Below, in pieces: positions 6,011 through 15,279 of a stretch of DNA of 30,311 nt (positions are counted from its first letter, which is position 1; the number at the start of each line of letters is the position of its first letter). Both the position numbers and the translations under genes were made by a program. Origin of the DNA: a virus (taxonomy: Duplodnaviria > Heunggongvirae > Uroviricota > Caudoviricetes). Location: positions 1-30,311 of the IMG/VR virus record IMGVR_UViG_2778261541_000010; one strand, written 5' to 3'. Under the pieces are notes generated by a model. The model was given only the letters and a program-made list of their open reading frames with translations. It made no database searches and had not been told where the DNA came from.

Positions 6011-6025
6011 TTACCGTTGAGGTAA
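6011..6025. promoter_or_regulatory. Operator: perfect 15-bp palindrome TTACCGTTGAGGTAA overlapping the -10 of the leftward early promoter
   Basis: TTACC-N5-GGTAA; 62 bp centre-to-centre from the 6073 site. Confidence 0.7.
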
Positions 6026-6053
6026 TAATTATGCGTATCTGGTTTGATGTCAA
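6025..6053 (-). promoter_or_regulatory. Leftward early promoter (PL-like)
   Basis: Minus-strand TTGACA (6053-6048) followed 14-17 nt later by CATAAT/AATTAT; flanked by two operator palindromes. Confidence 0.5.
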
Positions 6054-6072
6054 TAGGTATGAGTTAAAAAAA

Positions 6073-6087
6073 TTACCCATCAGGTAA
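6073..6087. promoter_or_regulatory. Operator: TTACCCATCAGGTAA
   Basis: Perfect TTACC-N5-GGTAA palindrome between the repressor terminator and the leftward promoter. Confidence 0.7.
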
Positions 6088-6097
6088 TCGCACAGGC

Positions 6098-6123
6098 AAT
6101 AAAAAAGCCGCCATGAGGCGGCT
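6098..6123 (-). terminator. Intrinsic terminator of the repressor gene
   Basis: Minus-strand hairpin AGCCGCC-TCAT-GGCGGCT followed by TTTTTATT; 22 nt downstream of the repressor stop. Confidence 0.7.
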
Positions 6124-6144
6124 TACTTACTGAAAAATATGATT

Positions 6145-6729
6145 TTATTGTTTGTTTTTTTCGTTCTGGCTGATGACAAATTCAATGTAACTTTCGATCT
6201 TTGCCTTCTCTGTTTCAGGTAACAATGCGTAGCGCGAGCGGTCATAGTTGATGGTCGCAGGGTCGTGCGGGTGAATCAGTAATTCATAGCCGTGACGCCC
6301 GAATGCGGATGCAACATTCTCCAGGGTGGAAATGGAAACACTGACCTCATTGTTTAACAGGCGGCTGATTGTCACCTGGGCGACGCCGGATGCGCGGTGA
6401 AGTTTTCCCTGCGTTGAAAGGTCGCGGCTTTCGCTCATCCAGCGTTCTAGGTTGTGAGCCGCCAGCTGACCAATGTCGCTTGGGCCGACAGGCTGAAAAC
6501 CTTCCTGAGAAAGCGAGCGATCGATATCAAGCCAGTTACGGGGTTTATTGGCGGCAGCTTCAATTTTTCGCGCAACCTGGTCGCCGATAACCTTCTTGCC
6601 AAGAGCCCAGCGGTTTACCAGATTTGCCTGAGTTCCAAGTTTTTCTGCCATCCGCGTCTGAACACCATTGAATTCACGGTCGATCAAGTCGTTGAGATTT
6701 TGCCTGCGGACGTCCTGGATACTTTTCAT
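6145..6729 (-). CDS. Phage repressor with two XRE-type HTH domains in tandem (CI-like function)
   Basis: Two HTH segments (MAEKLGTQANLVNRWALGKK and ASGVAQVTISRLLNNEVSVS); divergent from a cro-like gene across an operator-rich intergenic region; own terminator downstream. Confidence 0.8.
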   Translation of the reverse strand: MKSIQDVRRQNLNDLIDREFNGVQTRMAEKLGTQANLVNRWALGKKVIGDQVARKIEAAANKPRNWLDIDRSLSQEGFQPVGPSDIGQLAAHNLERWMSESRDLSTQGKLHRASGVAQVTISRLLNNEVSVSISTLENVASAFGRHGYELLIHPHDPATINYDRSRYALLPETEKAKIESYIEFVISQNEKNKQ

Positions 6730-6784: not shown

Positions 6785-6799
6785 TTACCCAATAGGTAA
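6785..6799. promoter_or_regulatory. Operator O1 of the immunity region: TTACCCAATAGGTAA
   Basis: Perfect palindrome between divergent repressor and cro genes. Confidence 0.7.
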
Positions 6800-6801
6800 A
6801 T

Positions 6802-6816
6802 GCACCCCATAGGTAA
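6802..6816. promoter_or_regulatory. Degenerate operator O2: GCACCCCATAGGTAA
   Basis: Right half-site perfect, left half 3/5; 17 bp from O1. Confidence 0.45.
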
Positions 6817-6829
6817 CTATCCTTGATTT

Positions 6830-6858
6830 TTGTTACCTTATGGGTGAATATTTATTAT
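6830..6858 (+). promoter_or_regulatory. Rightward early promoter driving cro (PR-like)
   Basis: TTGTTA-17 bp-TATTAT, about 25 nt upstream of the cro ATG. Confidence 0.5.
6833..6847. promoter_or_regulatory. Operator O3: TTACCTTATGGGTGA (one mismatch), overlapping the cro promoter
   Basis: Overlaps -35 TTGTTA (6830-6835) of a promoter with -10 TATTAT (6853-6858), 17-bp spacer. Confidence 0.55.
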
Positions 6859-6883: not shown

Positions 6884-7114
6884 ATGAGCGATAACGGACA
6901 TTTCGATTTCAAAAAGCACTGGCTTGCACTTACTCCGGATGAGCGTGAAGCCTTCGCACAGGAAGCCGGAACGACGAGTCACTATATCCAGACTCACTTA
7001 ACAGGTAAGCGCAAAATGCCAGGTAAGGTATTGATGAATGGGCTTTTTAAAGCCTGTAAAACAAGACAATGGCTGCGCTCAAAAGCAGAACTGGCATACT
7101 TCTTCTACTCATGA
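6884..7114 (+). CDS. Cro-like small HTH regulator
   Basis: 76-aa ORF divergent from the repressor; HTH-like LTPDEREAFAQEAGTTSHYIQTHLTGKR; promoter and operators immediately upstream; terminator downstream. Confidence 0.6.
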   Translation: MSDNGHFDFKKHWLALTPDEREAFAQEAGTTSHYIQTHLTGKRKMPGKVLMNGLFKACKTRQWLRSKAELAYFFYS

Positions 7115-7136
7115 TATCCAGCCACAACCCTCTGTA

Positions 7137-7158
7137 GACCGCCATCCGGCGGTCTTTT
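7137..7158 (+). terminator. Intrinsic terminator immediately after cro (tR1-like)
   Basis: GACCGCC-ATCC-GGCGGTC followed by TTTTCAT. Confidence 0.6.
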
Positions 7159-7169
7159 CATATCTATTC

Positions 7170-7184
7170 GCACCTCAAAGGTAA
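7170..7184. promoter_or_regulatory. Degenerate operator-like site GCACCTCAAAGGTAA
   Basis: Same GCACC-N5-GGTAA variant as the 6802 site; lies between the cro terminator and the zinc-ribbon gene. Confidence 0.35.
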
Positions 7185-7264
7185 TAAAAAACCAAATCTG
7201 GTTGATCTTTTTTTTGTGTCAGCACAAAATAACCGTAATCCCAATACTAATAACAGGGCTTACC

Positions 7265-9065: not shown

Positions 9066-9085
9066 GCGCGATAGCGCATTTTTTT
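9066..9085 (+). terminator. Weak intrinsic terminator-like element after the P-like gene
   Basis: Short GCGC-GATA-GCGC stem followed by ATTTTTTT. Confidence 0.35.
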
Positions 9086-9097
9086 ACGCCTACATGA

Positions 9098-9112
9098 TTA
9101 CCTGTTGGGTAA
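9098..9112. promoter_or_regulatory. Operator: TTACCTGTTGGGTAA
   Basis: Perfect palindrome upstream of the -35 of the 9.1-kb promoter. Confidence 0.7.
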
Positions 9113-9131: not shown

Positions 9132-9160
9132 TTGATTCCATGTCTTATGTGGTTTTTAAT
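9132..9160 (+). promoter_or_regulatory. Promoter for the accessory (nin-like) operon
   Basis: TTGATT (9132-9137)-17 bp-TTTAAT (9155-9160); flanked by operators at 9098 and 9160. Confidence 0.5.
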
Positions 9161-9174
9161 TACCTAAGGGGTAA
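9160..9174. promoter_or_regulatory. Operator: TTACCTAAGGGGTAA overlapping the -10/+1 region and the ribosome-binding site of the DUF1064 gene
   Basis: Perfect palindrome ending 4 nt before the ATG at 9178; 62 bp from the 9098 site. Confidence 0.7.
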
Positions 9175-9177
9175 ATC

Positions 9178-9522
9178 ATGAGAAAACAGATACAGGCTCT
9201 TGGTCGACTCAAAACAGGCCAAATGAACAAAACAGAATCTGCGTATTGCCAGCACCTTGAGCTGCGTAAACGTGCAGGAGAAATCGTCTGGTATCGATTT
9301 GAGGGTATCAAGCTGCGGTTAGCTGACAACACGTTCTATACGCCCGATTTTGCTGTGATGCTCGCCACCGGCGAGATGGAACTGCACGAAGTGAAAGGTT
9401 TCTGGACCGACGACGCCAGGGTGAAAACCAAAGTCGCCGCAGATCAGTATCCGTTCCGAATCATCGGGGTAACGGTTAAACCAAAGAAAGCAGGTGGTGG
9501 CTGGAACATCGAAGAGTTCTGA
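9178..9522 (+). CDS. DUF1064-like phage protein with a PD-(D/E)XK-like motif
   Basis: TPDFAV...ELHEVKG motif; first gene after an operator-flanked promoter. Confidence 0.5.
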   Translation: MRKQIQALGRLKTGQMNKTESAYCQHLELRKRAGEIVWYRFEGIKLRLADNTFYTPDFAVMLATGEMELHEVKGFWTDDARVKTKVAADQYPFRIIGVTVKPKKAGGGWNIEEF

Positions 9523-11840: not shown

Positions 11841-12053
11841 ATGCCAAAAATACGCTACGACCTTGAAGATATGAGAGATAACTCAGCAAATTTTCCGAAA
11901 GAGGTTAAATTTCTCATGCATAAGTATGGTTGCGCCAGGAGGGATATAGTTATCGACAGTCAGCACCCTTGCGGCGAGGATGTAATTTTCATTCGCGGTA
12001 AATGGGAAGGGTATCTTGACGAGAGTTTTTACGATGAATTTGATGGACTTTGA
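11841..12053 (+). CDS. Hypothetical small protein (70 aa)
   Basis: ATG at 11841 with GAAGGTG RBS; the track ORF begins earlier inside a palindrome; followed by an intrinsic terminator. Confidence 0.4.
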   Translation: MPKIRYDLEDMRDNSANFPKEVKFLMHKYGCARRDIVIDSQHPCGEDVIFIRGKWEGYLDESFYDEFDGL

Positions 12054-12058
12054 ATACT

Positions 12059-12084
12059 GCCGCCAACTATGGCGGCTTTATTTT
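12059..12084 (+). terminator. Intrinsic terminator between the early/accessory region and the terminase genes
   Basis: GCCGCC-AACTAT-GGCGGC followed by TTTATTTT. Confidence 0.7.
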
Positions 12085-12095
12085 GCATGGTACTA

Positions 12096-12110
12096 TTACC
12101 ACAACGGTAA
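12096..12110. promoter_or_regulatory. Operator: TTACCACAACGGTAA, immediately upstream of the small terminase start
   Basis: Perfect palindrome; a degenerate overlapping repeat follows at 12114-12128 (TTACCACGGTGGTTA). Confidence 0.6.
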
Positions 12111-12127
12111 CTATTACCACGGTGGTT

Positions 12128-12724
12128 ATGATGCCTGCTGAACCTAAAACCTATAAACGCAAATCAACGCAATTTAAGCCACTAACAGCAATGCAGGAGG
12201 CTTATTGCCAGTCATACATCAAAACGCCTGAAAACCAGACTCAGGCAGCGATTAACGCAGGATTCTCCCCAAATACAGCGGCAGTTAAAGCCAGTGTCAT
12301 GATGCGCGATGAACGCATTCAAAAACGGATTGCCGAGCTGATGGAGGAGCGCAACAAACGAATGCGCGTCAGTGCTGATTACGTTCTCATGCGTCTGGTG
12401 GAGATCGACCAGATGGACGTGATCGACATCCTCAACGACGATGGGAGCCTTAAGCCAATCCGCGAGTGGCCGAAAATTTGGCGCACTACGCTTAGTGGCT
12501 TTGATCTGTCATCGACCATCATGAACATGAACGAGGATTCGATAGAGACAATCCTCAAAAAAATTAAATGGCCTGATAAGGTGAAGAACCTCGAACTGAT
12601 TGGTAAGCACGTCGACGTCAACGCATTCAAAGAACGCCTGGATGTTAATGTGAATGTGACAATTGCTGATCGCATAGCGGCAGCCAGGAAGAGACTGAAA
12701 GAACGTCAGGATGGCAATCAGTGA
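12128..12724 (+). CDS. Terminase small subunit
   Basis: TAMQEAYCQSYIKTPENQTQAAINAGFSP matches the HTH of phage small terminases; start trimmed to ATG 12128 (track start 12050 runs through a terminator and repeats). Confidence 0.7.
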   Translation: MMPAEPKTYKRKSTQFKPLTAMQEAYCQSYIKTPENQTQAAINAGFSPNTAAVKASVMMRDERIQKRIAELMEERNKRMRVSADYVLMRLVEIDQMDVIDILNDDGSLKPIREWPKIWRTTLSGFDLSSTIMNMNEDSIETILKKIKWPDKVKNLELIGKHVDVNAFKERLDVNVNVTIADRIAAARKRLKERQDGNQ

Positions 12725-14865: not shown

Positions 14866-14942
14866 TGGCGTGGCATGCAGGATTCGAACCTGCGACCAAC
14901 CGCTTAGAAGGCGGTTGCTCTGTCCGACTGAGCTAATGCCAC
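14866..14942 (-). tRNA. tRNA-Arg (anticodon UCU), phage-encoded, with encoded CCA
   Basis: Reverse complement folds as a 77-nt cloverleaf: acceptor GTGGCAT/ATGCCAC, D-arm GCTC-AGTCGGACA-GAGC, anticodon arm ACCGC-CTTCTAA-GCGGT (anticodon TCT), T-arm GCAGG-TTCGAAT-CCTGC, discriminator G, CCA. Confidence 0.9.
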
Positions 14943-15264: not shown

Positions 15265-15279
15265 TTACCTGAAAGGTAA
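15265..15279. promoter_or_regulatory. Operator: TTACCTGAAAGGTAA upstream of the virion-gene operon
   Basis: Perfect palindrome about 90 bp upstream of the first structural gene. Confidence 0.65.

Follow-up and report, generated by a model that had tools for sequence, protein, structure and literature searches.

Operator pairs at a conserved 62-bp spacing enclose two promoters of a predicted phiV10-type prophage

Two operator pairs and the promoters between them

The DNA analysed here is a stretch of 30,311 nucleotides (nt), positions 1 to 30,311 of the Caudoviricetes record IMGVR_UViG_2778261541_000010, and this whole stretch is called the window below. Judging by its sequence, the window is a temperate podophage of the phiV10/epsilon15 type (genus Uetakevirus) and an E. 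coli prophage. Its gene order is that of phiV10 and epsilon15, and the E. coli phages phiv142-3 and phiV10 share 97-98% nucleotide identity with it across the immunity region. The elements under study are four copies of the palindrome TTACC-N5-GGTAA, which form two pairs around two promoters and are predicted to be operators of the phage repressor Rep (194 amino acids, encoded at 6145-6729 on the minus strand). The left pair consists of a downstream operator, TTACCGTTGAGGTAA, at 6011-6025 (centre 6018) and an upstream operator, TTACCCATCAGGTAA, at 6073-6087 (centre 6080). In the right pair the upstream operator, TTACCTGTTGGGTAA, lies at 9098-9112 (centre 9105) and the downstream operator, TTACCTAAGGGGTAA, at 9160-9174 (centre 9167). 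All four match the motif exactly and the centres of both pairs are 62 bp apart, just as the original prediction, an earlier reading of the letters of this DNA by a model, had placed them. The exact motif occurs seven times in the 30.3 kb of the window, where 0.01 occurrences would be expected, and none of 100 dinucleotide-preserving shuffles of the window reached seven. When up to two mismatches are allowed, 28 matches are found against 8.3 expected.

Both are predicted early promoters of the sigma-70 type. The left promoter reads leftward and is PL-like. Its -35 element, TTGACA at 6048-6053 on the minus strand, was found both by direct reading and by a promoter scan, which calls TTGACA-17-AATTAT with 10 of 12 consensus matches. 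The -10 element AATTAT (6025-6030, minus strand) shares its last T with the first T of the downstream operator. This operator thus abuts the -10, and its centre, 6018, coincides with the predicted +1, while the upstream operator is centred at about -62; both placements, here and at the right promoter, assume a start 7 nt past the -10. Among relatives, the -10 consensus at this promoter is (A/G)ATTAT, and the downstream operator is present at this position in every relative examined. A T7 tract on the minus strand (6066-6072; A7 on the plus strand) adjoins the upstream operator and is a candidate UP element or bend. Further upstream, a terminator scan finds the intrinsic terminator of the repressor gene (6105-6124, minus strand; fold energy -21.1 kcal/mol, z = -5.8), 13 nt from the upstream operator. 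The operon under the left promoter includes the genes for recombination and excision; it holds small open reading frames (ORFs) as well as RecE/RecT-like, AlpA-like and PerC-like genes. In phages with Reps of at least 99% identity, the central 5 bp of the upstream operator (6078-6082) differ widely (TAACG, TAATG, TTATG, TGATG, TTACG and others). The centre of the left downstream operator is almost invariant (TCAAC), presumably since it belongs to the transcription start and leader.

The right promoter, designated PM, reads rightward into the gene of a DUF1064 protein and drives the genes beyond it as well. Here the -35 element is TTGATT (9132-9137, plus strand), 19 nt past the upstream operator and within a conserved CTATTGA, and a 17-nt spacer separates it from the -10-like TTTAAT (9155-9160, plus strand), whose last T is again the first T of the downstream operator. 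Relatives carry TTAAAT, ATAAAT or TTTAAT in the same register. This promoter was kept on comparative grounds, CTATTGA being conserved at a fixed distance. The upstream operator is once more centred at about -62 and the downstream centre, 9167, coincides with the predicted +1. The DUF1064 gene begins with an ATG at 9178, and its Shine-Dalgarno sequence, AAGGGG (9166-9171), falls inside the downstream operator; the overlap with the ribosome-binding site that had been claimed for this operator is real, and it recurs at the right promoter of all relatives. A weak terminator-like hairpin, GCGC-GAUA-GCGC followed by U7 (9066-9085, plus strand; fold energy -8.4 kcal/mol, z = -2.0), follows the replication genes and ends 12 nt upstream of the right upstream operator. 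It is kept in relatives and appears as a putative terminator in the phiV10 record.

At both promoters the elements run in the same order: terminator T-run, 12-13 nt, upstream operator (15 bp), 19 nt, -35, 17 nt, -10 and downstream operator. The 19-nt segment opens with an A/T tract (T7 on the left, CAAAAT on the right) and closes with CTA. Common to both cassettes are also CTATTGA, a GCCT 10 nt upstream of the upstream operator and the preceding terminator T-run. The two 47-nt spacers of the window are 45% identical, with the shared bases mostly in the -35 region. The original prediction had named the same two -35 hexamers and had put one operator on the -10/+1 region and the other just upstream of the -35, and both statements hold, the downstream operator abutting the -10 and covering the predicted +1, the upstream one standing 19 nt before the -35. 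It had further described the two promoters as unrelated, which has to be given up: to all appearances they are two copies of one cassette design.

Conservation and helical phase of the spacing

A search with Rep for related loci gave phages of 99-100% identity, which are uninformative on divergence. Diverged GenBank phages and scans for motif pairs were used instead. Epsilon15, SPC32H, Tyrion and BUCT554 have 62-bp pairs at both promoters, and in two Klebsiella phages the left pair is spaced by 63 bp and the right pair by 62 bp; Rep identity across these named relatives runs from 78% down to 42%. A scan of IMG/VR that was unbiased as to spacing, which accepted every pair of exact operators at a centre-to-centre distance of 47-77 bp and was pooled with the loci fetched before, gave 157 unique pair sequences at 62 bp, 15 at 63 bp and 3 at 61 bp, with 10 or fewer at each other spacing. 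TTGA follows one operator at 17-22 nt in 171 of the 177 unique pairs of 61-63 bp, and at exactly 19 nt in 149 of these 171. Likewise, CTATTGAC stands 19 nt from the upstream operator in 149 of the 171 oriented unique pairs, the rest being mostly 61- or 63-bp variants in which this distance is 18 or 20 nt.

The spacers themselves have diverged widely. They fall into 13 lineages with mutual identities of 80% or less (median 53%, minimum 36%), all with exactly 47 nt between the operators. The variation between 61 and 64 bp comes entirely from slippage (T6-T9) in the T tract beside the upstream operator, and 62 bp predominates although this tract slips; all parsed variants keep 22 nt between the -35 and the downstream operator. 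As a control, the gap that separates the upstream operator from the end of the repressor gene ranges from 64 to 94 bp in the loci with a spacing of 61-64 bp and from 79 to 324 bp in a second class, with a spacing of about 74 bp, described below. The exact cassette also occurs in prophages of representative genomes of Citrobacter, Pseudocitrobacter, Klebsiella, Kluyvera, Buttiauxella, Pseudescherichia, Superficieibacter and Ca. Erwinia. Contigs on which both cassettes were caught carry them on opposite strands, at a distance of about 3 kb. Because the 62-bp spacing is kept at both promoters in seven diverged phages and across diverged spacers while flanking distances vary, it is under constraint and selection and is not a coincidence.

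Two further spacing-range scans, limited to loci that encode a Rep homologue by tblastn (n = 200), sorted the spacings into classes. At the left promoter the operators are either 61-64 bp (about 170 loci) or 73-75 bp (20 loci) apart, with none between; the right-promoter spacing is 62 bp in 137 of the Rep-linked loci. The equal spacing that the original prediction regarded as conserved is thus indeed kept, at both promoters in diverged phages and in most of these 200 loci. Rep of the 74-bp class is 45-53% identical to the three query Reps. Its upstream operator is still 19 nt from TTGACA and its downstream operator lies 12 bp farther from the -10, with its centre at about +13, and the class looks as if it had arisen by a 12-bp displacement or duplication. 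A lone TTACC half-site is often left in this class at the downstream position of the 62-bp class (L227, L155, L091, L233 and others). Rare right-promoter variants depart from 62 bp: one lineage has a spacing of 52 bp, with the upstream operator 8 nt from the -35 (L189), and the other has three operators at 53 + 20 bp, one of them within the promoter spacer (L109). Where a third operator is present at the left promoter, it lies mostly 76 or 86 bp beyond the pair.

The spacings of 52-53, 61-64 and 73-75 bp are near 5, 6 and 7 turns of 10.5 bp (52.5, 63 and 73.5 bp), with only about two or three independent shifts among them. Given that the distances between operator and promoter shift, yet the distances from operator to operator stay near whole turns, a same-face relation is favoured. 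The classes are in this sense suggestive, not conclusive, of two operators that lie on the same face of the DNA.

A proposed bridging Rep tetramer and its rivals

Rep of the window is a full-length homologue of SPC32H Rep and of epsilon15 gp38. It matches the structure 5D50_A of the PDB over residues 1-190 (E = 4e-42) and 5D4Z, the C-terminal tetramer-forming fragment (E = 4e-20). Pfam finds helix-turn-helix (HTH) domains in the protein, and by homology it possesses an N-terminal HTH, a middle dimerisation and a C-terminal tetramerisation domain. Rep is 99.5% identical to the repressor of phiV10 and ZX5, and overexpression of the latter (ZX5 ORF21) blocked lytic growth (PMC9782041). NLVNRW in the N-terminal HTH region, likely the recognition helix, is identical in the Reps of the window and SPC32H, which fits the identical operator half-sites. 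The GenBank record of epsilon15 marks the orthologous sites as protein_bind 'repressor', among them 32554-32570 and 32616-32632, whose centres are 62 bp apart. Because that record annotates the motif as repressor sites, we regard the four pair sites as predicted operators of this known repressor family. Missing from the same record are the downstream operator of the right promoter and those that lie in the interval from the repressor gene to the cro-like gene. This suggests that the pairing at the right promoter of epsilon15 went unrecognised, since only one of its two operators is annotated. No operators are annotated in the GenBank record of phiV10.

In a secondary account of SPC32H Rep, the tetramer is described as binding DNA and the dimer as binding it weakly, the pairing of DNA-binding domains is said to run across dimers, with each palindrome read by two N-terminal domains that belong to different dimers, and 'one tetramer is required for repression' (PMC9638917). 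A second source assigns the C-terminal domain to a 'TetDloop' fold that Rep has in common with the loop-forming Rco of plasmid pLS20, and states that the repression mechanism of Rep 'has not been extensively characterized' (PMC9986798). A tetramer whose DNA-binding domains pair across dimers has two DNA-reading units, and Rep of the window, as a tetramer, would by homology have at least two such units as well. The strongest Pfam HTH_3 match of Rep is at residues 106-147, in the middle of the protein rather than at its N-terminus; the corresponding region of SPC32H Rep is described as a dimerisation domain (PMC9986798), and an HTH fold may here have been reused for dimerisation.

We consider it a little better than an even bet, with a probability of roughly 0.55, that one Rep tetramer bridges both operators of each pair across the core promoter. 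In the lysogen, a single tetramer would grip the two operators together, each pair of N-terminal HTH domains taking one palindrome. The operators would lie about six helical turns apart, hence on the same face of the DNA, and the 47-bp stretch with the -35 and -10 would form, by bending, a very small loop or clamp from which RNA polymerase is excluded. Bindings at the two operators would in this way reinforce one another. The A/T tracts one turn inside each operator may favour a bend toward the protein. In accord with such a loop or clamp, the operators enclose both promoters, at about -62 and +1. That in this phage Rep is the protein bound at the four sites, and that 6018 and 9167 are real starts, we infer from the sequence. 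The downstream A/T tract doubles as the -10, and the upstream one could be a UP element. Loops of five to six turns are physically possible, and Lac repressor also forms short loops. Hochschild and Ptashne reportedly found in 1986 that lambda CI cooperates on engineered operators 5 or 6 turns apart.

The original prediction had passed from the conserved spacing to cooperative binding or a small repression loop. This idea gains support from the tetrameric homologue of SPC32H, from the Rco-like fold and from the helical-turn classes, whereas bridging and looping as such are still what we infer. More tentative, and in our view with the odds slightly against it, is the wider proposal that a Rep tetramer wraps the core promoter in a loop of about 62 bp, as a reusable cassette at two promoters, whose length is quantised by helical turns across the prophages of Enterobacterales.

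Several points weigh against a bridging tetramer. The phase argument draws on few independent events, one 12-bp shift at the left promoter and one or two shifts at PM, and all members of the 74-bp class may go back to one ancestor. The main class shows no variation at all in the length of the segment from the -35 to the downstream operator, and the constancy of the spacing could be mostly anchored to the promoter and not to the other operator. In the interval between the repressor and cro-like genes, the operator spacings of 17, 30-31 and 47-48 bp are out of phase. At PM, the promoter scan makes no call, TTTAAT having T and not A at its second position; the -10 with this T at -11 is weak, and a predicted mRNA that begins at 9167 would start inside its own Shine-Dalgarno sequence. 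The statement on the tetramer in PMC9638917 says nothing of bridging distant sites. Finally, the cost of bending DNA into a 62-bp loop is high, and neither spacer has a consensus site for integration host factor (IHF). Bending assisted by IHF was rejected as a candidate: the consensus WATCAANNNNTTR has two matches in the window against 1.4 expected, and none is in a spacer. As for phase, the operators at the terminase gene (18-20 bp apart) are out of phase like those of the repressor/cro-like interval, and because of these two sets phasing appears to be specific to the promoter-bracketing pairs and no general rule for Rep sites.

In the main rival to this reading, the two operators of a pair would act independently. 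The downstream one would block polymerase at the -10/+1, and the upstream one would mask the A/T tract, taken as a UP element for the alpha subunit, or would reinforce the terminator as a roadblock that stops read-through from the repressor gene or the replication operon into lytic genes; 62 bp would then merely be the sum of two promoter-anchored distances. The invariant distance from the -35 to the downstream operator speaks for such an arrangement, as does the upstream operator of the main class, which keeps to 19±1-2 nt from the -35. Moreover, the region around -54 to -48 holds a T6-T9 or TAAAAT tract, which is found beside the upstream operator only, with none at the single operators 12096 and 15265, and the pairs and the terminase operators each begin 11-13 nt past a terminator T-run. 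We nonetheless think independent action less likely than bridging, considering that other lineages shift the downstream operator by +12 bp or the upstream one by 9-11 bp, yet their spacings stay near whole turns (52-53 and 73-75 bp) without intermediates. The homologous Rep is moreover described as a good DNA binder only in its tetrameric form with two pairs of DNA-binding domains (PMC9638917), and the free pair would be expected to take the operator 62 bp away on the same face.

Another question regards the identity of the main binder. Cro-type proteins share operators with the repressor in many phages, such as lambda, P22 and 434, and the product of the cro-like gene (6884-7114), an ORF that finds no match in Pfam, or else a host factor could occupy the pairs in place of Rep, for lytic shut-off or in another role. 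We hold this to be quite improbable: the epsilon15 record assigns the sites to the repressor, the motif travels with Rep homologues in 200 loci, NLVNRW is kept together with the half-site TTACC, and binding of the cro-like protein would supplement that of Rep, not substitute for it. The upstream operator could also be a class I activation site for Rep or the cro-like protein, as class I activators classically bind with their centre near -61.5 (CRP does so at the lac promoter) and the weak right -10 might need help. The chance of this is slimmer still, given that the left promoter, with its consensus -35, can do without an activator, that the same protein also sits on the +1, and that the upstream operator lies at about -52 or -70 in other lineages. 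The slightest chance goes to an equal spacing that is simply inherited, with paralogous copies of a cassette having kept their length by accident. The shared CTATTGA, GCCT motif and preceding terminator T-run agree with such copies. However, the spacers are down to 45% identity in the window and 36% between lineages without a net indel, and 62 bp is dominant in spite of the T6-T9 slippage, whereas nearby intergenic distances vary by tens to hundreds of bp. On account of this divergence of spacers, slippage and variable flanks, chance or simple inheritance of the equal spacing was rejected, and a tetramer that bridges each pair is the reading we carry forward.

The system is, by its sequence features, a phiV10-type member of the known Rep-operator system of epsilon15 and SPC32H. 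Like Rep of epsilon15 (gp38), SPC32H and SPN1S, it combines full-length repressor homology with half-sites of the form ATTACC-N5-GGTAAT. With epsilon15 and SPC32H it also shares the 62-bp pairs at both promoters and the orthologous places of the operators, some of which follow the repressor terminator or the replication genes, some separate the repressor gene from the cro-like gene, and others precede the small terminase gene or the head genes. It differs from them in that its Rep is about 42% identical to the Salmonella proteins and its left promoter has two operators, where theirs has three, with an additional one 76 bp further on. Both the operator motif and the tetrameric repressor were already known, and this is not a new kind of system. 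Full-text literature searches turned up no paper that maps these operators, although the primary epsilon15 and SPC32H studies were outside the search and priority is thus uncertain. The cassette geometry at two promoters, its conservation in the family and the helical-turn spacing classes were not found described in the searched texts.

Rep can also be compared with repressors that are better known for looping. As with lambda CI on operators of engineered spacing and with the short loops of Lac repressor, two palindromes about six turns apart on the same face would be held by a multivalent repressor with the DNA bent, which for Rep is our proposal; the hallmark of such arrangements is that they depend on helical phase. 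Natural lambda loops measure 2.3 kb, natural lac loops 92 and 401 bp. In contrast to these systems, the layout of about 62 bp is natural, conserved and encloses a whole core promoter. Rep is unrelated to LacI and, unlike CI, has not been reported to be cleaved; Kim and Ryu reportedly showed in 2013 that an antirepressor inactivates it. Rco of the Bacillus plasmid pLS20 and PrgX of pCF10, both tetrameric repressors that loop the DNA from one operator to another nearby, resemble Rep in having an N-terminal HTH and a C-terminal tetramerisation domain and in acting on two operator regions that flank or overlap a promoter (PMC9638917, PMC9986798). Rep, Rco and PrgX are all described as inactivated by a partner protein or peptide (PMC9638917, PMC9986798). 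Unlike Rep, Rco uses multiple tetramers and larger operator arrays for looping, while Rep carries an extra middle dimerisation domain that sets it apart from Rco and PrgX, and looping by Rep is a proposal.

Among immunity systems, the Rep-Ant switch of epsilon15-type phages is unusual in its structure, and the 62-bp pairs supply it with a testable geometry, in which one tetramer, two same-face operators and a promoter between them would come together. If this is true, the Rep loop of 62 bp would be among the smallest natural repression loops, and the unusual pairing of DNA-binding domains across dimers in SPC32H Rep would have a functional reason. The natural variants of 61-64, 73-75 and 52-53 bp resemble a ready-made helical-phase experiment. 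The cassette could also serve synthetic biology as a compact, tightly repressed promoter. Finally, the sites improve the annotation of the phiV10-type prophages of E. coli O157 and its relatives, whose records carry no operators.

Further operators and neighbouring features

The two 62-bp pairs are members of a wider set of repressor sites. A cluster of three operators lies between the divergent repressor and cro-like genes, an exact one at 6785-6799, one with two mismatches at 6802-6816 and one with a single mismatch at 6833-6847, with centre spacings of 17 and 31 bp. The last of them overlaps a rightward promoter, TTGTTA-17-TATTAT (6830-6858). Relatives show a like layout between these genes, with spacings of 17/30 or 48 bp. 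The counterparts of the cluster in epsilon15 (33341-33402) are exact matches and are unannotated in its GenBank record.

A doublet of operators, exact at 12096-12110 and with one mismatch at 12114-12128, 18 bp apart, follows immediately after a terminator (12058-12085) at the start of the small terminase gene. It is orthologous to the epsilon15 sites 12-27 and 30-44. The doublet overlaps the place where the small terminase gene likely starts in reality (ATG at about 12129-12132); the ORF called by program at 12050-12724 opens with a TTG ahead of the terminator and is probably overlong. A single exact operator at 15265-15279, upstream of the head-gene block, is orthologous to the annotated epsilon15 repressor site 2931-2947. 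Three groups of operators, the two 62-bp pairs and the terminase doublet, each start 11-13 nt past a terminator T-run, and this repeated adjacency suggests that bound Rep may double as a roadblock to read-through.

A degenerate operator with two mismatches, GCACCTCAAAGGTAA, is found at 7170-7184, right after the terminator of the cro-like gene (7136-7155) and ahead of an ORF at 7202. In what is apparently the same region, sites with one mismatch occur in Tyrion (35365), BUCT554 (L085, 7486) and BUCT711 (L086, 6032).

Many viral contigs carry TTACC-N5-GGTAA pairs or arrays that were treated as likely belonging to different systems, the spacing statistics being confined to loci with a Rep homologue. 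Tandem GTTACC-N5-GGTAAC arrays with a period of 18-24 bp and up to seven copies (L098, L144, L157, L162, L099 and L134) are iteron-like, and with the same half-site they may belong to another system such as an origin or a partition site. One group of phages (L113, L203 and L193) has four or five operators at distances of 24, 29 and 32-34 bp, a TTGACA -35 that abuts the middle one, and outer operators of the trio that are likewise 61-63 bp apart. One exact match to the full cassette lies in Bacteroidota (L391, Chryseobacterium sp. c4a scaffold_7, 840-916), all others being in Enterobacterales; it could reflect contamination, chance or transfer.

Induction in the epsilon15/SPC32H-type system goes through Ant, a small antirepressor under LexA control, and not through cleavage of the repressor. 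The ant gene lies just before the tailspike gene in relatives, and the corresponding place is beyond the end of the window; in phiV10, ORF23 is mentioned as the anti-repressor (PMC9782041). In the long intergenic region before the head genes the window carries a tRNA-Arg gene (anticodon TCT; 14866-14942, minus strand), and SPC32H has a tRNA-Arg at the equivalent place.

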